Positions 1-6,836 of a stretch of 6,836 nt of DNA are shown piece by piece (the stretch's first letter is position 1; every line of letters begins with the position of its first letter). This DNA is from a virus (Duplodnaviria; Heunggongvirae; Uroviricota; Caudoviricetes): the IMG/VR virus record IMGVR_UViG_2547132127_000012; one strand, given 5' to 3'. The notes under the pieces are model-generated. The model ran no database searches and was not told the origin of the DNA. It saw nothing but the letters and a program-made list of their open reading frames with translations. The translations under genes were made by a program, and so were the position numbers.

Positions 1-819
1 ATGTGTCAGGTATTTGGTGTATCCAGGAGCGGTTATTACAACTGGGTACAGCATGAACCCTCAGACAGAAAACAAAGTGATGAGCGGCTAAAACTGGAGA
101 TTAAGGTGGCACATATCCGCACTCGCGAAACATATGGAACCCGGCGGCTCCAGACGGAGCTGGCAGAGAATGGCATCATCGTTGGTCGTGACCGACTGGC
201 ATGTCTTCGTAAGGAGCTGAGGCTACGCTGTAAGCAGAAACGCAAGTTCAGAGCGACTACGAACCCGAACCACAATCTGCCAGTTGCGCCAAATCTGCTG
301 AACCAGACGTTCGCTCCTACAGCACCAAATCAGGTCTGGGTGGCGGACCTGACGTATGTTGCCACACAGGAGGGATGGTTGTACCTCGCTGGCATCAAAG
401 ATGTTTATACGTGTGAAATTGTCGGCTACGCCATGGGAGAGCGCATGACAAAAGAGCTGACAGGTAAAGCCCTGTTTATGGCGCTCAGGAGCCAGCGCCC
501 ACCTGCCGGGCTAATCCACCACTCTGATCGAGGTTCACAGTACTGCGCATACGATTACCGGGTCATACAGGAGCAGTCTGGTCTGAAAACATCAATGTCG
601 CGTAAAGGTAACTGTTACGACAACGCTCCGATGGAAAGCTTCTGGGGAACGCTGAAAAATGAGAGCCTGAGCCACTATCGTTTTAATAACCGGGATGAAG
701 CCATCTCAGTAATACGGGAATACATTGAGATTTTCTACAATCGTCAGCGTCGTCACTCTCGTCTGGGGAATATCTCCCCGGCAGCCTTCAGGGAAAAATA
801 TCATCAGATGGCTGCTTAA
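1..819 (+). CDS. IS3-family transposase OrfB (DDE integrase-like catalytic domain), IS600-like
   Basis: 272-aa ORF identical to the OrfB of copy 2. Carries IS3-family/retroviral-integrase-like motifs ([26 protein letters not shown]). Family is established knowledge; the IS600 name is from memory of its OrfA/OrfB. Confidence 0.85.
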
Positions 820-862
820 AAAAAGAACAAATGGTAGTGTCCGCTATTGCCAGTACACCTCA
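1..862 (+). mobile_element. IS3-family insertion sequence (IS600-like), copy 1, 3' portion only (window starts inside the element, at the orfB ATG)
   Basis: Bases 1..862 are identical to 3844..4705 of the complete copy (offset 3843). Both copies end ...gtacacctca, then flanking sequence diverges. The left end and orfA lie upstream of the window. Confidence 0.85.
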
Positions 863-1789
863 GTGAAAGAAGCACCGATTGGTATCGAGGTCATCCCCGC
901 GCACGTCACTGAATATCTGAACAAGGTACTGACTGAAACCGATCATGCCAACCCTGATCCGAAAATCGTGGATATTGCCTGCGGTCGCTCCTCTGCCCCG
1001 ATGCCGCAGCGTGTAACAGAAGAAGGAAAACAGGATGATGAAGAAAAACCGCAGCCATCTGGCGCAATGGCAGATGAACAGGCAACGGCTGAAACAATGG
1101 AACCGGATGCAACTGAACATCATCAGAACACGCAGCCGCTGGATGCTCAGTCACAGGTAAATTCTGTTGATGAGAAATATCAGGAACTGCGGGAAGAACT
1201 CCATGAAGCCCGGAAAAACATTCCGCCCAAAAATCCTGTCGATGCAGACAAATTACTGGCTGCCTCTCGCGGAGAATTTGTTGAAGGGATTAGCGACCCG
1301 AATGATCCGAAATGGATTCCCGGTCATCATATCTCCTCAAATGAAGTCAAAAAAACGGAAAATGAAGTGCGACAGACTGAAGATAAACAGCACCAGAACA
1401 GCGAACCGGAGGAGGGAACACCCTGCAATCAGACTGGCGAGGATAACTGCCCTGACTGTGGCGCGGTGATGGGAGACGCAACTTATCAGGAAACTTTTGA
1501 CGAAAAAAAACCAGATGAAGCACAGGAAGAAGAGCCGAAGAAAACGGAAAAAGCTGATGATTTGTTACCGGAGAACGCTGGCAGCGATCAGCATAATGAT
1601 AGCAATAATGAAACTGGCGAAGATGAACTCAACTGGAAAAAACAGGTGTTGATTGCGGCGGTTTACGGTTTATGTGCGAATCCTGCGTGCATAGCCTATG
1701 CGCCTGCAATCCCTGACATCGCAATGATGATTGCCAACAAGCTTGAAAATTTTGGAGTGACCAGTGATGAGCGCTTACCCGATTTTTGA
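863..1789 (+). CDS. Highly acidic (D/E-rich) low-complexity protein, 3' fragment; 5' end probably removed by the IS insertion
   Basis: The frame is open from inside the IS across the junction at 862/863. The first ATG after the junction (1001) has no Shine-Dalgarno, and no plausible start exists between 863 and 1001. Long D/E/Q-rich tract, a Cys cluster (C-x8-C-x2-C, ...[15 protein letters not shown]...), hydrophobic C-terminus. Stop at 1787-1789 overlaps the next gene's start. Identity unknown; I have a vague, unverifiable impression of resemblance to the acidic central region of Rac RecE. Confidence 0.45.
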
Positions 1790-2039
1790 TCGTATTGAAG
1801 AAATGGCATGGGCTCGCCACTACCAGCAGATCGTTCGTGAAGAAAAAGAAACGGAACTGGCGGACGACCTGGAAAAAGGTCTGCCTCAGCACCTGTTTGA
1901 ATCGCTCTGCATCGACCATTTGCAACGCCACGGTGCCAATAAACAGGCAATCAGCCACGCATTTGATGATGATGTTGAGTTTCAGGAGCGCATGGCAGAA
2001 CACATCCGGTACATGGCTGAAACCATTGCCCACCACTAG
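1767..2039 (+). CDS. Hypothetical 90-aa acidic protein, translationally coupled to the upstream ORF
   Basis: GGAG at 1754-1757, 9 nt before ATG 1767. Start overlaps the upstream stop (1787-1789) by 23 nt. No motif recognised. Confidence 0.5.
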
Positions 2040-2068
2040 GTTGATATTGATTTGGAGGACTAAAATCT

Positions 2069-3166
2069 ATGGCGCTTTTTCAACGAGCAATAAACACACA
2101 GGCCTATCTAAAAGCAGGAATTATGGGGTTTGCTGGCGACGGCAAAACCTACACAGCAAGCGAACTGGCTATTGGTCTGGTAATGCTTATGCGGCAACGG
2201 GGAATTGAAGCTGGTAACCGCCCGGTAATGTTTCTGGACACAGAAACAGGCTCTGACTGGGTTAAACCCCGCTTTGATGCGGAAAATATCGAATTATTTA
2301 CGGCAAAAACCCGCTCGTTTGTTGATCTGCTTGAAGCCATTAATGAAGCGGAAAGCAGCGGTTCCGTAATGATCATCGACTCCATCAGTCACTTCTGGAC
2401 CGGATTATGCGACGAGTATGCCAGACGCCGAAACCGTAAACGAGGACTGGAATTTTCAGGCTGGGCGTGGCTCAAACAGGAGTGGCGACGCTTTACCGAT
2501 CGATTTGTTAACAGTCAGGCGCACATTATTATGTGCGGGCGTGCAGGATATGAGTATGACTTTTTCGAAGGTGATGATGGCAAACGCCAGTTGGCAAAAA
2601 CCGGTATAAAAATGAAAGCAGAAACAGAAACCGGTTATGAACCCTCCATCCTGATCCAGATGGAGAAGCAAATGAACATAGAAACCGGTCAGGTGTGGCG
2701 CACCGCCAGAATACTAAAAGATCGCTCCACCCGTATTGATGGACAGGTATTTTCAAACCCAACATTTAAAAACTTTCTTCCTCATATCGAGTTTCTTAAC
2801 CTGGGAGGTGAACACCCCGGCATCGATACCTCACGGGATAACAGTGAATTATTTGCCAACGACGGTACACCGACATGGCTAAAAGAAAAGCGTGCAAAAG
2901 AAATCGCACTTGATGAAATTATCGAGTTGCTCAACAAGCACCATGGGGGCACCAGTAACGACGCCAAACGCGCAAAAGCTGATTTGCTGGAAAAAACATT
3001 CACCTCCCGCTCATGGGAAAGAATCAAAGGTATGGACTGGCCGACAATCAAAGCTGGTCGTAATGCACTATGGATTGAACTGGAAGGCGTTGAATATGCA
3101 TTCCCGGATCCACAAACACAAAACGAAACGCAACAAGCAGGATACGATGAGAATATTCCGGTGTAA
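2069..3166 (+). CDS. RecA-fold P-loop NTPase (AAA_24/Sak4-like topology) with a ~250-aa C-terminal extension of unknown function
   Basis: GGAGG at 2054-2058, 10 nt before ATG 2069. Walker A GFAGDGKT (aa 20-27), acidic strand motif FLDTETG (aa ~55-61), Walker B VMIIDS (aa ~101-106). This Walker A / D-T-E / hhhhDS order is typical of RecA-like and AAA_24 phage ATPases, not ABC or classical AAA+. Family assignment is from motifs, unverified. Confidence 0.8.
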   Translation: MALFQRAINTQAYLKAGIMGFAGDGKTYTASELAIGLVMLMRQRGIEAGNRPVMFLDTETGSDWVKPRFDAENIELFTAKTRSFVDLLEAINEAESSGSVMIIDSISHFWTGLCDEYARRRNRKRGLEFSGWAWLKQEWRRFTDRFVNSQAHIIMCGRAGYEYDFFEGDDGKRQLAKTGIKMKAETETGYEPSILIQMEKQMNIETGQVWRTARILKDRSTRIDGQVFSNPTFKNFLPHIEFLNLGGEHPGIDTSRDNSELFANDGTPTWLKEKRAKEIALDEIIELLNKHHGGTSNDAKRAKADLLEKTFTSRSWERIKGMDWPTIKAGRNALWIELEGVEYAFPDPQTQNETQQAGYDENIPV

Positions 3167-3216
3167 AACCAAGTGCATTTTGAACACGGTTTTTGAAAAT
3201 ATTAATGGAGGTGTTC

Positions 3217-3405
3217 ATGTATAAAATTACAGCCACTATTGAAAAGGAAGGTGGTTCTCCTACCAGCTGGACAAGATATTCAAAATCTAAACTAACGAAA
3301 TCAGAATGCGAAAAAATGCTCTCAGGGAAAAAAGAAGCAGGCGTTTCCAGAGAGCAGAAAGTAAAACTGATAAATTTTAATTGCGAGAAACTTCTGTCCT
3401 CGTGA
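3217..3405 (+). CDS. Hypothetical 62-aa lysine-rich small protein (MYKITATIEKEGG...)
   Basis: GGAGG at 3207-3211, 5 nt before ATG 3217. Lies 50 nt after the ATPase stop in an AT-rich segment and ends 36 nt before the IS left end. I suspect, but cannot verify, similarity to small Rac-prophage proteins of the ydaC type. Confidence 0.5.
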   Translation: MYKITATIEKEGGSPTSWTRYSKSKLTKSECEKMLSGKKEAGVSREQKVKLINFNCEKLLSS

Positions 3406-3441
3406 GTTGCATTATATCAAAATTAGAACTTCATAGCTGAT

Positions 3442-3470
3442 TGAGATAGCCTGAGTTTAACGGACACTCC
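3442..3470 (+). repeat. IS left terminal inverted repeat (imperfect)
   Basis: Matches the reverse complement of 4677..4705 at the terminal TGAG and the internal CGGACACT block. Confidence 0.5.
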
Positions 3471-3505
3471 TTCCTGAAATAGAATGGCATCAGAAGGAGC
3501 TAATA

Positions 3506-3808
3506 ATGAGCAGAAAAACCCAACGTTACTCTAAAGAGTTCAAAGCCGAAGCTGTCAGAACGGTTCTTGAAAATCAACTTTCGATCAGTGAAGGCGCTTC
3601 CCGATTATCTCTTCCTGAAGGCACTTTAGGACAATGGGTTACCGCCGCCAGAAAAGGGCTCGGTACTCCTGGTTCCCGCACGGTGGCTGAACTGGAATCT
3701 GAAATTCTGCAACTGCGTAAGGCGTTAAATGAAGCTCGCCTTGAGCGCGATATATTAAAAAAAGCAACAGCGTATTTTGCACAGGAGTCGCTGAAAAATA
3801 CGCGTTAA
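3506..3808 (+). CDS. IS3-family transposase OrfA (helix-turn-helix DNA-binding protein with C-terminal leucine-zipper-like region)
   Basis: AGGAG at 3494-3498, 7 nt before ATG 3506. 100-aa protein; the slippery heptamer lies near its 3' end. Confidence 0.9.
   Translation: MSRKTQRYSKEFKAEAVRTVLENQLSISEGASRLSLPEGTLGQWVTAARKGLGTPGSRTVAELESEILQLRKALNEARLERDILKKATAYFAQESLKNTR
3757..3763 (+). other. Programmed -1 ribosomal frameshift slippery heptamer (A AAA AAA) producing the OrfAB fusion transposase
   Basis: AAAAAAA then G at 3757-3764. In the orfA frame it reads ttA AAA AAA Gca. A -1 slip moves codon starts from 2 mod 3 (orfA) to 1 mod 3, the orfB frame (ATG 3844). This is the standard IS3-family arrangement. 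Confidence 0.6.
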
Positions 3809-3843
3809 TCGAACAATGGCGACAACAATTTCCCATTGAAGCG

Positions 3844-4662
3844 ATGTGTCAGGTATTTGGTGTATCCAGGAGCGGTTATTACAACTGGGTACAGCATGAA
3901 CCCTCAGACAGAAAACAAAGTGATGAGCGGCTAAAACTGGAGATTAAGGTGGCACATATCCGCACTCGCGAAACATATGGAACCCGGCGGCTCCAGACGG
4001 AGCTGGCAGAGAATGGCATCATCGTTGGTCGTGACCGACTGGCATGTCTTCGTAAGGAGCTGAGGCTACGCTGTAAGCAGAAACGCAAGTTCAGAGCGAC
4101 TACGAACCCGAACCACAATCTGCCAGTTGCGCCAAATCTGCTGAACCAGACGTTCGCTCCTACAGCACCAAATCAGGTCTGGGTGGCGGACCTGACGTAT
4201 GTTGCCACACAGGAGGGATGGTTGTACCTCGCTGGCATCAAAGATGTTTATACGTGTGAAATTGTCGGCTACGCCATGGGAGAGCGCATGACAAAAGAGC
4301 TGACAGGTAAAGCCCTGTTTATGGCGCTCAGGAGCCAGCGCCCACCTGCCGGGCTAATCCACCACTCTGATCGAGGTTCACAGTACTGCGCATACGATTA
4401 CCGGGTCATACAGGAGCAGTCTGGTCTGAAAACATCAATGTCGCGTAAAGGTAACTGTTACGACAACGCTCCGATGGAAAGCTTCTGGGGAACGCTGAAA
4501 AATGAGAGCCTGAGCCACTATCGTTTTAATAACCGGGATGAAGCCATCTCAGTAATACGGGAATACATTGAGATTTTCTACAATCGTCAGCGTCGTCACT
4601 CTCGTCTGGGGAATATCTCCCCGGCAGCCTTCAGGGAAAAATATCATCAGATGGCTGCTTAA
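3844..4662 (+). CDS. IS3-family transposase OrfB (DDE catalytic domain); in vivo made mainly as OrfAB by -1 frameshift
   Basis: 272-aa ORF identical to 1..819; lies in the -1 frame relative to orfA. Confidence 0.9.
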   Translation: MCQVFGVSRSGYYNWVQHEPSDRKQSDERLKLEIKVAHIRTRETYGTRRLQTELAENGIIVGRDRLACLRKELRLRCKQKRKFRATTNPNHNLPVAPNLLNQTFAPTAPNQVWVADLTYVATQEGWLYLAGIKDVYTCEIVGYAMGERMTKELTGKALFMALRSQRPPAGLIHHSDRGSQYCAYDYRVIQEQSGLKTSMSRKGNCYDNAPMESFWGTLKNESLSHYRFNNRDEAISVIREYIEIFYNRQRRHSRLGNISPAAFREKYHQMAA

Positions 4663-4676
4663 AAAAAGAACAAATG

Positions 4677-4705
4677 GTAGTGTCCGCTATTGCCAGTACA
4701 CCTCA
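4677..4705 (+). repeat. IS right terminal inverted repeat (imperfect)
   Basis: Reverse complement aligns with 3442..3470. The same sequence ends copy 1 at 834..862. Confidence 0.5.
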
Positions 4706-4727
4706 GATTATTAAAAATCAACCACAC

Positions 4728-4756
4728 CCGCCAGTATTCTGTATATTTACTGGCGG
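4728..4756. repeat. 9-bp perfect inverted repeat (ccgccagta N11 tactggcgg) between the IS right end and xis
   Basis: 4728-4736 ccgccagta is the reverse complement of 4748-4756 tactggcgg; the 11-nt spacer is AT-rich. No downstream T-run, so not a canonical intrinsic terminator. Confidence 0.5.
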
Positions 4757-4778
4757 TCATATCGTGAGAGGTATGGCA

Positions 4779-5060
4779 ATGAATCTTGTGACACTCAAAA
4801 CGTGGGGAAAACTCAGATATCCGGATAACCCACCATCAATATCAACGCTGAGACGATGGGCAAGGAATGGAAACATTTATCCTGCACCTGCACTACACGG
4901 GAGGAGTTACAGGGTGGTTCCGGAGGCTTTCTATATCAACCCAAATAAGGTTGATACCGATATAACACACCATCAGCCTAATGGGCGACAAGGGAGAGAC
5001 AGTCCGTTAATGGAGAAGTTAAAACATGCAGCGGAAAAAATACGATCCCAATTTGCCTAG
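4779..5060 (+). CDS. xis: Excisionase (lambda Xis-like, winged-helix recombination directionality factor)
   Basis: GAGAGG at 4765-4770, 8 nt before ATG 4779. Product MNLVTLKTWGKLRYPDNPPSISTLRRWARNGNIYPAPALHGRSYRV... resembles lambda Xis (MYLTLQEWNARQRRPRSLETVRRWVRECRIFPPP...). Overlaps int by 35 nt, as in lambda xis-int. The track's longer ORF start (4674) lies inside the IS and is rejected. Confidence 0.7.
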   Translation: MNLVTLKTWGKLRYPDNPPSISTLRRWARNGNIYPAPALHGRSYRVVPEAFYINPNKVDTDITHHQPNGRQGRDSPLMEKLKHAAEKIRSQFA

Positions 5061-6102
5061 AAACTTAACATATCGAAGGAGAGACAAAGCATATTACTGG
5101 CGCAACCCTCTGACGAAAGAAGAATTTACACTAGGTAAAATTTCAAGAAGAGATGCAGTAGCGCAGGCAATTGAAGCAAATCATTATATATACAAAAACT
5201 ACTCTCCTGCTGCCCTAATTGAAAAGCTTAAAGGGGTCGACTCATTTACTATGGCAGGCTGGATTGAACGTTACAAAACGATTCTTATAAGGAGAAAAGC
5301 GTCCAGAAATACTTATAAAACTCGGGTAAATCAACTGGAGACAATAAAAGAAAAATTAGGAGGGGTTTTACTGACAGAAATAACCACTCGCCATATCGCC
5401 GAGTTTCTTGATTTGTGGATTGAAGGAGGGAAAAACACGATGGCAGGATCAATGCGTTCTGTGTTATCTGATATGTTCCGCGAAGCCATTGTTGAAGGAC
5501 GTATATCTCAAAATCCAGTAACGCCAACAAGAGCACCGAAAATAGTAGTTACAAGAGAACGGCTGAAACTAAAGACATACAACTGCATCAGGGAGGCAGC
5601 AGATCAACTTCCGGCATGGTTCCCATTAGCTATGGACTTAGCCCTTGTAACAGGACAACGTCGCGAAGACATAACGAATATGCGGTTCAGTGATATTTAT
5701 GATGATCGTCTCCACATCAGGCAAATTAAGACAGGAATGATGATTGCTATCCCCCTGTCACTCAGCCTTCCTGTCGCTGGTTTACGACTTGGTGCAGTAG
5801 TTGAACAGTGCCGCATGGTAAGTAGGGGGGATTATCTAATCAGTGCCGGGATTAGAAAAAACAGCCCTGACGGCAGCATTCACCCGGACGGCCTGACAAA
5901 GAAATTTGTCGCAGCCAGAAAATTAACAGGTATCCTGTTCAGTGAAAACCCACCAACTTTTCACGAAATCAGAAGCCTGGCTGGACGATTGTACAAAGAA
6001 ATATGTGGAGAAGAATTTGCTCAGCGTCTACTTGGCCACACATCGGAGAAGACAACAAAAATGTATCTTGATGAGAGAGAAAAAACGTACTTACTGCTCT
6101 GA
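5026..6102 (+). CDS. int: Lambda-family tyrosine integrase (site-specific recombinase)
   Basis: GGAG at 5012-5015, 10 nt before ATG. N-terminal arm-binding region ([30 protein letters not shown]) parallels lambda Int. Catalytic motifs present: [10 protein letters not shown] (Arg), [11 protein letters not shown] (His-x-x-Arg), [13 protein letters not shown] (His...Tyr nucleophile). Confidence 0.9.
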
Positions 6103-6118
6103 TTTTAACGTAAATGGA

Positions 6119-6148
6119 TTGTTAAATGTATTTTGGTTGTGATATAAC
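6119..6148 (+). promoter_or_regulatory. Candidate sigma-70 promoter with extended -10, firing toward the sRNA locus
   Basis: -35 TTGTTA (6119-6124), 18-nt spacer, TGa + TATAAC (6140-6148). Predicted start near 6155-6157. Hexamer prediction only. Confidence 0.3.
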
Positions 6149-6180
6149 CAAAAAAGACCGGAATACAGAAATTCGAGTAA

Positions 6181-6200
6181 ATTTCGGGGAATTTCGGGGA
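6181..6200. repeat. Perfect tandem direct repeat, 2 x 10 bp (atttcgggga atttcgggga), with a degenerate third unit just upstream (6171-6180)
   Basis: Read directly. It sits between the int stop and the sdsR 3' end, where lambda-type P' arm Int-binding sites would be expected. Confidence 0.6.
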
Positions 6201-6233
6201 GACGTTTGCAACTAATTGATTTTAAATACAATT

Positions 6234-6267
6234 AAAAAAAGACCGAATACGATTCCTGTATTCGGTC
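6234..6267 (-). terminator. Intrinsic terminator of SdsR (10-bp perfect stem, 7-nt loop, then U7 on the minus strand)
   Basis: gaccgaatac (6241-6250) pairs with gtattcggtc (6258-6267); loop gattcct. A7 at 6234-6240 on the plus strand is U7 on the minus strand directly after the hairpin. Confidence 0.8.
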
Positions 6268-6336
6268 CAGGGAAATGGCTCTTGGGAGAGAGCCGTGCGC
6301 TAAAAGTTGGCATTAATGCAGGCTTAGTTGCCTTGC
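6235..6336 (-). ncRNA. sdsR: SdsR (RyeB) small regulatory RNA, RpoS-dependent, ~102 nt
   Basis: Minus strand reads GCAAGGCAACTAAGCCTGCATTAATGCCAACTTTTAGCGCACGGCTCTCTCCCAAGAGCCATTTCCCTGGACCGAATACAGGAATCGTATTCGGTC then a T-run, which matches my recollection of enterobacterial SdsR. Internal hairpin ggctct...agagcc, terminal terminator, sigma-S-type -10 just upstream. Confidence 0.8.
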
Positions 6337-6339
6337 CCT

Positions 6340-6375
6340 TTAAGAATAGATGACGACGCCAGGTTTTCCAGTTTG
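6340..6375 (-). promoter_or_regulatory. Sigma-S-type promoter of sdsR
   Basis: On the minus strand, -14 to -4 relative to the proposed start (6336) reads TCTATTCTTAA, close to the sigma-S extended -10 consensus TCTATACTTAA including the -13 C. No clear -35, as is usual for sigma-S promoters. Confidence 0.5.
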
Positions 6376-6423
6376 CGTGCAAAATGGTCAATAAAAAGCG
6401 CGGTGGTCATCAGCTTAAATGTT

Positions 6424-6465
6424 AAAAACCGCCCGTTCTGGTGAAAGAACTGAGGCGGTTTTTTT
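6424..6465. terminator. Bidirectional intrinsic terminator between yebY (minus) and the sRNA locus
   Basis: Stem ccgcc (6429-6433) / ggcgg (6454-6458) with extension gttc/gaac, flanked by A5 (6424-6428) and T7 (6459-6465), so hairpin plus U-run is present on both strands. It lies 30 nt beyond the yebY stop. Confidence 0.75.
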
Positions 6466-6494
6466 ATTGGAAATCAAAAGGCTATTTTAGGTAA

Positions 6495-6836
6495 TTAACA
6501 GAGTTTTTCAGCTCGTTCTATAAACGGTGCCAGACTCATTTTTTCGCCGGGATTGTTAGGATCATCAATCTGAATCACCGAAATGGGTTGGGCATTGGTC
6601 TTCCCACTGGCAACTTCCTTTTGTGCGATATCGTTTAAAGGATACTGCACGAGGGTACTTGGGTTGATGACATACAAAGCATTACCCGGTCGGCAAGTCA
6701 GCATTACCTCTTCGCGATTAAACGCCCATTTGTCTTTACCCACTTCAAAACGACTCACGGTTATCACCTGTGGAGCCGCCAGCGCCGCTGCAGAACTGGT
6801 GAGTAACAGAAACGCCAGAATACTTTTTTTCATCAT
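6495..6836 (-). CDS. yebY: Small exported protein with Sec signal peptide ([20 protein letters not shown]|APQ), probably host protein YebY (DUF2511)
   Basis: 113-aa ORF with a typical n/h/c signal peptide and AxA cleavage motif. Its position next to sdsR/ryeA matches my recollection of the E. coli pphA-ryeA/sdsR-yebY neighbourhood. The ATG is at the window edge (6834-6836), so upstream signals are not visible. Confidence 0.8.

Follow-up and report, generated by a model that had tools for sequence, protein, structure and literature searches.

The window, a stretch of 6,836 nucleotides, very probably holds a leftover left-arm recombination segment of a lambdoid or Rac-like prophage with the order recE'-gam-ATPase-ydaC/RalA-[IS600]-xis-int, in which the small ORF at 1767-2039 is gam, an ATPase occupies the recombinase slot, the small ORF at 3217-3405 is ydaC/rcbA with the antisense sRNA RalA, and ralR has been replaced (Table 1). 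The host of this prophage remnant appears to be Shigella flexneri, and the integration site adjoins yebY and the ryeA/ryeB sRNA locus. The recE-family fragment at the head of the segment matches positions 339-596 of 877 of the NCBIfam exodeoxyribonuclease VIII model (E 3e-113, under the cut-off) as well as phrog_607, and its RefSeq relatives are labelled 'RecE family exodeoxyribonuclease', partial. The earlier note expected both small ORFs to be left unannotated; however, RefSeq annotates both in relatives, and gene callers find both in flexneri-type assemblies. They are already known as prophage genes of named families; public databases list the identical proteins, and Rfam has a family for the antisense RNA. 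The gam/ydaC finding is, overall, an ordinary one.

Table 1. Features of the prophage segment and their positions in the window.
Feature	Position	Strand	Basis or remark
recE-family ORF fragment	863..1789	+	5' end removed by IS600; without nuclease domain
gam, lambda GamS-type RecBCD inhibitor, 90-aa allele	1767..2039	+	PF06064, phrog_259, PDB 5mbv/2uuz
Former last 7 gam codons and native stop (VDIDLED*), now untranslated	2040..2063	+	In-frame translation; 98-aa Gam of loci L001/L003
AAA_24 ATPase, 365 aa, RecA/Rad51-type core and C-terminal helical domain	2069..3166	+	PF13479, phrog_1366, AF2, Foldseek
ralR remnant, last 10 codons (..ENINGGVHV*)	3194..3224	+	K-12 ralR-ydaC homology starts at 3194
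ydaC/rcbA ORF (DUF1187), 62 aa, basic	3217..3405	+	PF06688, NF007283, coding tests
RalA sRNA gene, RalR/RalA type I antitoxin, complete, antisense within ydaC	3223..3401	-	Rfam RF02694
40 nt upstream of RalA, left before IS600, with TGATATAAT (hexamer 3416-3411)	3402..3441	-	Read from sequence
IS600, simple insertion, 1264 bp	3442..4705	+	Between ydaC/RalA and xis; 3-bp target duplication GAT

The first small ORF starts with an ATG at 1767, which has GGAG 9 nt on its 5' side, and ends with a TAG at 2037-2039. Its product was described as acidic, which is borne out by a pI of 5.08 and by 19 D+E vs 9 K+R in 90 aa. The coupling to the upstream ORF holds as well, since the start overlaps the end of that ORF (1789) by 23 nt, with an in-frame stop 3 codons upstream of the start; the upstream ORF is the recE-family fragment cut by IS600. 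Judged by its Pfam Gam match, the ORF is not a chance ORF: PF06064 gives 175 bits (cut-off 25; E 3.8e-52), with residues 1-90 covering positions 1-90 of the 98-position profile. By phmmer, residues 1-90 align with PDB 5mbv/2uuz (E about 1e-46), and 72/90 residues (80%) are identical to GamS. From residue 1 onwards the protein aligns with lambda Gam (GamS; PDB 2UUZ, 5MBV) without a gap and retains both the N-terminal helix region and the acidic character; both genes have the same short GamS-type start, and both head the set of recombination genes. In contrast to lambda gam, the gene in the window stops at residue 90 and not at 98, is followed by a RecA-fold ATPase and not by bet-exo, and is preceded by a recE-family ORF and not by kil.

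Lambda Gam is a dimeric DNA mimic which inhibits RecBCD (Wilkinson et al. 2016, PMC5218532). As the gam product is 80% identical to the Gam protein of the RecBCD-Gam structure, we infer that it would likewise bind and inhibit RecBCD as a dimeric DNA mimic, and the acidity of the ORF would then be the DNA mimicry of Gam. By homology to lambda GamS, the dimer would fill two places in RecBCD, the DNA-binding site and the channel for 3'-ssDNA; linear phage DNA would thereby be protected, and the phage recombinase could act.

The gene ends at residue 90 because of a C-to-T change at 2037, which turned CAG into TAG and removed the last 8 residues; the complete 98-residue GamS is not encoded. Relatives have CAG at this site, where their frame continues for 8 more codons until the TAA at 2061-2063, and this native stop ends 5 nt ahead of the ATPase ATG in the window and in the relatives alike. 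The TAG allele is present in all six flexneri-type loci read (L093-L098). CAG is present in L001, L003, L005, L006, L019, L099, and L100, and neither the five E. coli-type relatives checked nor a second gam-ATPase copy has the TAG.

The product of the gene between the two small ORFs matches PF13479 (AAA_24) with 56.5 bits (cut-off 27; E 4e-15). Its best PHROG is phrog_1366, a family of unknown function (E 7e-80), while the match to phrog_124 ('Sak4-like') reaches only E 1.4e-8 and covers residues 9-167. In the AF2 model (pLDDT 84), residues from about 233 to 340 form an additional helical domain, and a Foldseek search of the PDB places one chain of the RAD51-paralogue XRCC3 complex and KaiC at the top (E about 1e-7); a sequence search of solved structures gave no match for the ATPase. 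Sak4 of phage HK620 is a core-only RecA-like single-strand annealing protein of about 25.6 kDa (PMC5928155, PMC2896510), and an SSB gene is located directly downstream of sak4 (PMC5928155). Like this protein, the ATPase has a P-loop fold of the RecA/Rad51-paralogue type, belongs to Pfam AAA_24, and is set in a temperate-phage recombination module beside a RecBCD-control gene; some of its relatives, in two Achromobacter-type loci, also have an SSB gene directly downstream. However, with its extra C-terminal domain it has 365 aa against ~225 aa for the core-only proteins, its best PHROG is 1366, and it falls outside the Sak4 sequence family; in addition, the window lacks an SSB gene. As read from sequence and predicted fold, the ATPase appears to be distantly Sak4-like, with a RecA/Rad51-type fold. 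Since the PHROG that it matches best has no assigned function and it is 140 residues longer than the characterised core-only Sak4, position and fold are what point to a recombinase role, for which strand annealing would be the activity. The family comprises about 2000 clusters at 90% identity, and its members are 60-75% identical across proteobacterial classes. Such a widespread, uncharacterised phage ATPase family is a better target than either small ORF.

The boundaries of the cassette with the ATPase are seen by comparison with related modules. At the same yebY site, E. coli R1 carries recE'-gam-bet-exo-ralR-ydaC (DUF1187)-xis-int, and the gene order in K-12 is recE-recT-ralR-rcbA. The window has the same early-left operon slot and the same flanks as lambda Red (gam-bet-exo) and Rac RecET, and E. 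coli R1 is 83-97% identical to it on both sides of the cassette. In contrast, nothing in the bet-exo-ralR version corresponds to the cassette itself (2066-3193), which holds one RecA-fold ATPase where the others have an annealase/exonuclease pair, and no exonuclease gene is present. It appears that the cassette has replaced bet-exo together with all of ralR but its last 31 nt. The window is a clear case of how lambdoid recombination modules exchange cassettes, with gam and a RecA-fold ATPase for gam-bet-exo and with the break inside ralR. The ATPase would fill the recombinase slot in place of Bet/Exo or RecT; given this place, Gam and the ATPase would form one functional module, in which the target of Gam would be a host nuclease and not the ATPase.

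The earlier note proposed another relationship: the acidic and the basic protein would be partners dedicated to the ATPase, whether as regulators, as inhibitors, or as toxin/antitoxin-like proteins. On this reading the three genes would make up one system. The three genes are contiguous and co-oriented, the trio is ~99% conserved in 10 E. coli genomes and in flexneri-type assemblies, and Gam lies immediately ahead of the ATPase in four other enterobacterial contexts; the order kil-gam-ATPase is found in Salmonella, Atlantibacter, and the Cronobacter phage phiES15. However, the first ORF is 80% identical to lambda Gam, the target of which is RecBCD, and gam is equally at home beside bet-exo. 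The ATPase of phiES15 is 84% identical to that of the window but its Gam only 41%, and therefore the two genes have been exchanged independently. Moreover, gam adjoins the ATPase only in Enterobacteriaceae (lambdoid phages), where such adjacency is expected of a Red-like recombination module. In 11 loci from beta-, alpha-, and gamma-proteobacteria with the ATPase at 64-75% identity, neither gam nor DUF1187 is adjacent.

For the basic protein, the neighbourhoods of 85 DUF1187 loci were surveyed: 51 have RecT-RalR-DUF1187, 26 have RalR-DUF1187, and 3 have Gam-ATPase-DUF1187. The normal companion of DUF1187 is ralR/recT (77/85 loci), and DUF1187 is not beside any of the ATPase relatives examined outside E. 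coli/Shigella, including those of Salmonella, Atlantibacter, and Cronobacter. The junction of the ATPase cassette is, in addition, a recombination scar inside ralR. The dedicated-partner proposal is largely refuted by these co-occurrence data and is highly improbable. A part of it survives, as both ORFs are genuine and conserved prophage accessory genes, the first belongs to an inhibitor family, and the second lies in a toxin/antitoxin locus; co-conservation with the ATPase likewise applies to gam within Enterobacteriaceae, but not to gam elsewhere nor to DUF1187 (3/85 loci). For the ORF at 3217-3405, this is the outcome that the earlier note had named as refuting its proposal. The idea of an oppositely charged pair acting on the NTPase does not hold.

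The second small ORF runs from an ATG at 3217 to a TGA at 3403-3405 and is small, basic, lysine-rich, and located in an AT-rich stretch behind a strong Shine-Dalgarno sequence, just as it had been described: the product has a pI of 9.55 and 11 Lys, GGAGGT lies 5 nt 5' of the ATG, and the local GC content is 0.365-0.375 vs about 0.47 in the ATPase. The suggested comparison with ydaC/ralR-type small proteins of the Rac prophage led to the correct family, DUF1187/ydaC. PF06688 gives 125.4 bits (cut-off 20.7; E 1.1e-36) and NF007283 gives 133.7 bits (cut-off 92), and on the DUF1187 match the ORF is not a chance ORF.

On the opposite strand, wholly inside this ORF as in K-12 (PMC4041452), lies RalA, which matches model positions 1-179 of 179 of RF02694 with 216.1 bits (gathering score 170; minus strand, 3401-3223) and has 7/179 mismatches to the K-12 sequence. 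The identification rests on the covariance model, as the predicted fold has a thermodynamic z-score of -0.18, i.e. no signal. RalA of K-12 is a 179-nt Hfq-dependent sRNA, encoded inside ydaC on the opposite strand, which blocks ralR translation by a short seed (Guo et al. 2014, PMC4041452). The window retains the seed CUGCUUCUUUUUU, which the predicted fold leaves unpaired; one base differs from K-12 (GGG for GGT), at the border of the 16-nt seed as published, and the target sequence of the seed is AGUGAAAAAGAAGCA. In the short stretch left between RalA and IS600, TGATATAAT is a putative RalA promoter; K-12 has TACAAT at the same place, and a consensus scan did not call TGATATAAT.

Compared with ydaC (rcbA)/RalA of the K-12 Rac prophage (PMC4041452), the nucleotide identity is 94% over 3194-3442 and the protein is 92-95% identical, RalA has its full length, the ralR stop overlaps the ydaC ATG in the same way, and the place just upstream of xis-int is the same. 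The window differs in that ralR codons 1-54, and hence the toxin, are absent, in that IS600 lies 40 nt upstream of RalA, and in that the upstream neighbour is the ATPase and not recT. A tblastn search of RalR against the window found residues 57-64 only, at 3198-3221, and an intact ralR beside ralA is absent. The ydaC/rcbA gene is a separate module, normally located behind the DNase toxin gene ralR and translationally coupled to it. The ralR remnant holds the Shine-Dalgarno sequence of ydaC, which ydaC has thus retained after the cassette swap. Since the swap removed the body of ralR, RalA is, at this locus, an antitoxin without a toxin gene; a cassette exchange has deprived a type I antitoxin of its toxin. 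The locus does not offer a toxin/antitoxin-like protein partner of the kind proposed earlier: its antitoxin is the RNA encoded opposite ydaC, and the toxin gene is deleted.

It may be asked whether the ORF at 3217-3405 encodes a protein at all. Guo et al. 2014 concluded that ydaC makes no protein: His-tagged YdaC was not detected in K-12, and mutation of the ydaC start codon or an early stop left the antitoxin activity unaffected (PMC4041452). By this reasoning the antisense RalA, which is complete in the window, would be the sole functional product, and the ORF would be incidental. However, polymorphic sites in ydaC are distributed over the codon positions as 6/5/22, so that position 3 accounts for 22 of 33, and the frame has 27 synonymous vs 10 non-synonymous alleles (binomial P = 4e-11). 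The dN/dS ratio is 0.09-0.20 where computable, and homologues in Citrobacter, Salmonella, and Klebsiella give a pN of about 0.23 vs a pS of 0.7-0.9. The ydaC frame is the sole frame open in all six diverged lineages; it remains open in Citrobacter, Salmonella, Klebsiella, and one further lineage at 61-67% nucleotide identity, where synonymous sites are saturated. Overall, these comparisons indicate that the ydaC/DUF1187 frame is clearly under purifying selection.

The sRNA does not extend as far as the frame. The Rfam model scores 41 bits in Salmonella, while Citrobacter, Klebsiella, and L090/L091 give no match. No ralR:RalA seed is above chance either: pairing of ralR with anti-ydaC in Citrobacter or Salmonella does not exceed that of shuffles, a comparison in which the 14-nt run of K-12 itself is equalled in 16/200 shuffles because the sequence is A-rich. 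DUF1187 is also found without ralR. In addition, the K-12 experiments indicate that the YdaC protein is dispensable for antitoxin activity, rather than that it is never made. Therefore, it is rather unlikely that RalA is the only product of the locus. The chances are about even that ydaC/rcbA is a true gene for a small basic protein, older and more widely conserved than the antisense RalA, and that in E. coli/Shigella the locus has two functions, one strand encoding the sRNA and the other a protein frame under selection. The coding selection on ydaC is a modest new point against the no-protein conclusion of the RalR/RalA paper. As the comparative data contradict the published non-coding status of ydaC, the reading of the ralR-ralA-rcbA locus and of the 'fewer chromosome breaks' phenotype of rcbA is affected. 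A protein frame on the antisense strand (frame -2) was considered as well and rejected; although open across the ORF in the window, it is interrupted by stops in K-12, Citrobacter, Salmonella, and L090.

On the reading of a locus with two functions, the persistence of both the YdaC frame and RalA after replacement of the toxin gene suggests a role of YdaC and/or RalA that is independent of ralR. The AF2 model of the ydaC product (pLDDT 81) has a beta-beta-alpha-beta order; a sequence search of solved structures gave no match for DUF1187, and a literature search for rcbA/DUF1187 gave only unrelated uses of the string. One possibility, in line with weak structural echoes of T7 Gp2, phi29 p6, and p56, is that YdaC may be made by the phage to inhibit a nucleic-acid enzyme of the host. 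The likeness of DUF1187 to such small phage inhibitors (T7 Gp2, p56, phi29 p6, Dmd) is too weak for use in assigning a function from structure.

IS600 and deletions would have reduced the prophage to this segment, which is flanked by two IS600 copies, the second of them equally oriented and ending at 862. Homology with un-interrupted relatives ends at 3442 and restarts at 4706, and 'IS3-like element IS600' is the RefSeq annotation of this element type. Everything upstream of recE' is lost, including the native pL promoter, the repressor and regulators, and the replication and lysis genes. A scan of 1600-3520 for consensus promoters and terminators gave a number of sites not above the shuffled expectation, none of them placed to drive the sense genes. 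Under these circumstances gam, the ATPase, ydaC, and RalA might be inert cargo, a dead prophage fragment which drifts to loss without present function in the host. The loss of all upstream genes between two IS600 copies and the nonsense mutation in gam are in line with such decay, as are sister assemblies with a 3' frameshifted ATPase (384 aa, L094) or a split integrase (L093). In the second gam-ATPase copy, IS600 abuts gam codon 2, and another IS with IS3-family-type ORFs follows straight after the ATPase. However, the ATPase, ydaC, and RalA are all intact in the window, and RalA retains its own putative promoter. The exact 90-aa Gam allele is found in 643 blocks of the assembly collection, from which the arrangement appears stable across the lineage, although recent common ancestry explains this count equally well. 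The probability that the segment is inert falls a little short of even. This question concerns present activity, and either answer is compatible with the identification of gam and of ydaC/RalA.

The two small ORFs that flank the ATPase gene, one acidic and one lysine-rich, are both real, with the coordinates and sizes described in the earlier note; as their matches to the Pfam families Gam (175 bits, E 3.8e-52) and DUF1187 (PF06688; 125 bits, E 1.1e-36) show, neither ORF is open by chance. The observation is thus confirmed, and its interpretation is partly supported. All elements fall into described families and are already annotated in relatives; the RefSeq labels are 'host-nuclease inhibitor Gam family protein', 'AAA family ATPase', and 'DUF1187 family protein', so that neither ORF is lost to size filters as had been expected.

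Features of the window and their coordinates
Feature	Coordinates	Strand	Remarks
IS600 copy 1, end part	1-862		
recE-family fragment	863-1789		
ORF1, gam	ATG 1767 to TAG 2037-2039		90 aa
ATPase	2069-3166		between ORF1 and ORF2
ORF2, ydaC/rcbA	ATG 3217 to TGA 3403-3405		62 aa
RalA sRNA	3401-3223	minus	Rfam RF02694, 216 bits, model positions 1-179; wholly inside ORF2
IS600, complete	3442-4705		target duplication GAT (3 bp; 3439-3441, 4706-4708)
excisionase and lambda-type integrase	about 4776-6102		int 5026-6102
SraC/RyeA (179 bits) and SdsR/RyeB (118 bits) sRNAs	6230-6374	both	directly past integrase, before yebY
yebY		minus	beyond sRNAs

ORF1 (pI 5.08; 19 acidic and 9 basic residues) has a GGAG 9 nt upstream of its start, which overlaps the end of the upstream ORF by 23 nt. 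It matches phrog_259, 'gam-like host nuclease inhibitor', and its residues 1-90 align without gaps with the lambda GamS chains in PDB 5MBV and 2UUZ (E about 1e-46), with 72 of the 90 residues identical. Judged by its sequence, ORF1 is a gam gene. GamS is a dimeric DNA mimic, the acidic surface of which fills the duplex-binding site of RecBCD, while its N-terminal helix blocks the 3'-ssDNA channel (PMC5218532). The acidity of ORF1 would therefore reflect DNA mimicry. The proposal of inhibitor-type partners holds in that Gam is an inhibitor; however, its target is a host nuclease.

Codon 91 of the window allele is TAG, whereas it is CAG in E. coli relatives and in a second Shigella/E. coli copy; the CAG form reads on as VDIDLED to a TAA located 5 nt before the ATPase start. 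The T is present in all six flexneri-type copies of the locus that were read. With 90 residues, compared to 98 in lambda GamS, the window Gam is incomplete. The second gam-ATPase copy lies at another chromosomal place (about 3640-5100 in loci from E. coli ECMA0423 and S. flexneri SFBU1023). There, an inverted IS600 end adjoins gam codon 2, by which the start codon and Shine-Dalgarno sequence are lost; at its 3' end this copy is intact, with CAG. The ATPase follows, and then a second insertion sequence with IS3-family-type ORFs, without ydaC. Since the window copy carries TAG and the second copy has no start, the two gam copies of the examined S. flexneri assemblies have suffered different kinds of damage.

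ORF2 (pI 9.55; 11 lysines) is preceded by GGAGGT 5 nt upstream and lies in DNA of 36.5-37.5% GC, compared to about 47% in the ATPase gene. The suggested ydaC/ralR lead proved correct: ORF2 belongs to the ydaC family (it also matches NCBIfam NF007283), its protein shares 92-95% identity with RcbA, as RefSeq names the homologue in the K-12 Rac prophage, and RalA is encoded antisense to it.

Gam lies directly upstream of the ATPase in Salmonella, Atlantibacter, and Cronobacter phage phiES15, the last with a Gam only 41% and an ATPase 84% identical to those of the window. No Gam was found beside the ATPase relatives of 64-75% identity in Pelomonas, Pseudomonas, Rhizobium, Candidimonas, Achromobacter, and others. 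The gene after the ATPase differs every time (a 46-aa ORF, DUF1317, a 102-aa ORF, or SSB), and DUF1187 occupies this place only in the E. coli/Shigella mosaic. Among 85 DUF1187 loci, RalR is immediately upstream in 77 and Gam-ATPase in three, which refutes ORF2 as a charged partner of the ATPase. Based on these neighbour patterns, Gam and the ATPase make up one functional module of the Red type, in which Gam would target the host nuclease, and DUF1187/RalA is an unrelated neighbour that recombination inside ralR brought beside the ATPase. For ORF1, the dedicated-partner model gives way to the well-known relationship between Gam and recombinases.

The ATPase takes the slot of bet-exo or recT in relatives. 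At the same yebY site, E. coli R1 has the order recE'-gam-bet-exo-ralR-DUF1187-xis-int and shares 83% identity with window 860-2065, 93% with 3194-3442, and 97% with 4706-6836; since identity continues on both sides, the segment 2066-3193 is a clean replacement. Pfam places the ATPase in AAA_24, and its PHROG is phrog_1366 (unknown function); a Sak4-like PHROG is matched weakly. In the structure model (pLDDT 84), a RecA-type core precedes a C-terminal domain of helices; among PDB entries, this core is matched best by KaiC and by a chain of the RAD51-paralogue XRCC3 complex. It thus resembles Sak4 in fold and context, but falls outside the Sak4 sequence family. The family is very large (1991 clusters at E <= 1e-5), strongly conserved (60-75% identity between Enterobacteriaceae and beta/alpha-proteobacteria), and uncharacterised. 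In Achromobacter-type prophages, an SSB gene begins at the ATPase stop codon.

The RalA match exceeds the RF02694 gathering score of 170, and its placement agrees with Guo et al. 2014 (PMC4041452). In their account, RalA is an Hfq-dependent RNA of 179 nt, encoded inside ydaC on the opposite strand; by pairing over 16 nt with the transcript of the neighbouring gene ralR, it keeps the DNase toxin RalR from being translated. In the window, ralR-ydaC homology starts only at 3194; the ralR remnant is the last 10 codons (ENINGGVHV*), which hold the ydaC Shine-Dalgarno sequence and the overlapping stop/start, and no further RalR-like segment is present elsewhere in the window. The antitoxin is therefore present without its toxin gene, and the locus is not a RalR/RalA toxin-antitoxin system. 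RalA differs from that of K-12 at 7 of 179 positions, one at the seed edge, and keeps 40 nt upstream with a TGATATAAT motif, a putative promoter, before the second IS600 copy, a simple insertion. In another lineage, E. coli O157:H7 RV06 (2837-3212 of its locus), ydaC/RalA is likewise kept and the toxin gene damaged: ralR is truncated, annotated at only 49 aa, and the downstream DUF1187 ORF is intact. One E. coli protein is an in-frame ralR::ydaC fusion, in which residues 1-44 of RalR run on directly into YdaC, starting at 'EAGVSREQK', apparently by deletion between a short direct repeat common to both genes, the same repeat that supplies the RalA seed.

Guo et al. 2014 concluded that ydaC encodes no protein (PMC4041452); in their experiments, YdaC was dispensable for antitoxin activity and undetected from a tagged plasmid construct. 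Comparative sequence data, however, point the other way. Across 28 different E. coli-type sequences, the three codon positions hold 6, 5, and 22 polymorphic sites (P = 9e-5), and 27 alleles are synonymous and 10 non-synonymous (P = 4e-11), although synonymous changes make up only 22% of those possible. Homologues from Citrobacter braakii, Salmonella enterica, Klebsiella oxytoca, and one further lineage (61-67% DNA identity) are near saturation at synonymous sites (pS 0.7-0.9; pN about 0.23), with dN/dS of 0.09-0.20 where computable, and the ydaC frame alone, of six, is open in all lineages. The RalA model gives 41 bits or nothing in these diverged lineages, although, being built on E. coli-type sequences, it may miss a diverged RalA; no ralR:RalA seed above chance was found in those tested, and three of the diverged lineages have DUF1187 without a ralR neighbour. 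Therefore, the protein frame appears to be more widely conserved than RalA, which may be a later addition confined to the E. coli/Shigella lineage. The point to carry forward is the evidence for ydaC/rcbA as a protein-coding frame that is under selection and overlaps the RalA gene. An antisense frame (minus strand frame 2, 3217-3402) was rejected as a gene, as it is not conserved: it is stop-free over all of ydaC in the window and K. oxytoca, but stop codons interrupt it in K-12, Citrobacter, Salmonella, and one further locus (L090).

The window covers the decayed end of a prophage. In the assembly collection, 643 blocks list the exact ORF1 protein. The layout is identical at all six chromosomal places shown, one of which is CP000266 (Shigella flexneri 5 strain 8401), and host genes and IS elements adjoin it on the left in each; the closest ATPase cluster bears the NCBI name Shigella flexneri. 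Compared with an intact E. coli relative, the window locus lacks the early promoter and the genes for repressor, replication, and lysis. Of the 877 positions of the exonuclease VIII model, the recE-family gene covers only 339-596, and its last 55 aa or so are an unrelated tail. It thus has no nuclease domain, and this also holds for the 665-aa form of a relative that no insertion interrupts (1990-3987 of its locus); what is conserved next to gam is the N-terminal/middle region of RecE. The prophage sits at the bidirectional SraC/RyeA-SdsR/RyeB locus, as in E. coli R1 and Salmonella relatives. Two same-orientation IS600 copies flank the 2.6-kb recE'-gam-ATPase-ydaC segment and could allow its deletion or mobilisation. 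Decay is still under way: in one sister assembly a 3'-end change extends the ATPase call to 384 aa, into the ydaC start, and in another the integrase is broken into ORFs of 130 and 220 aa.
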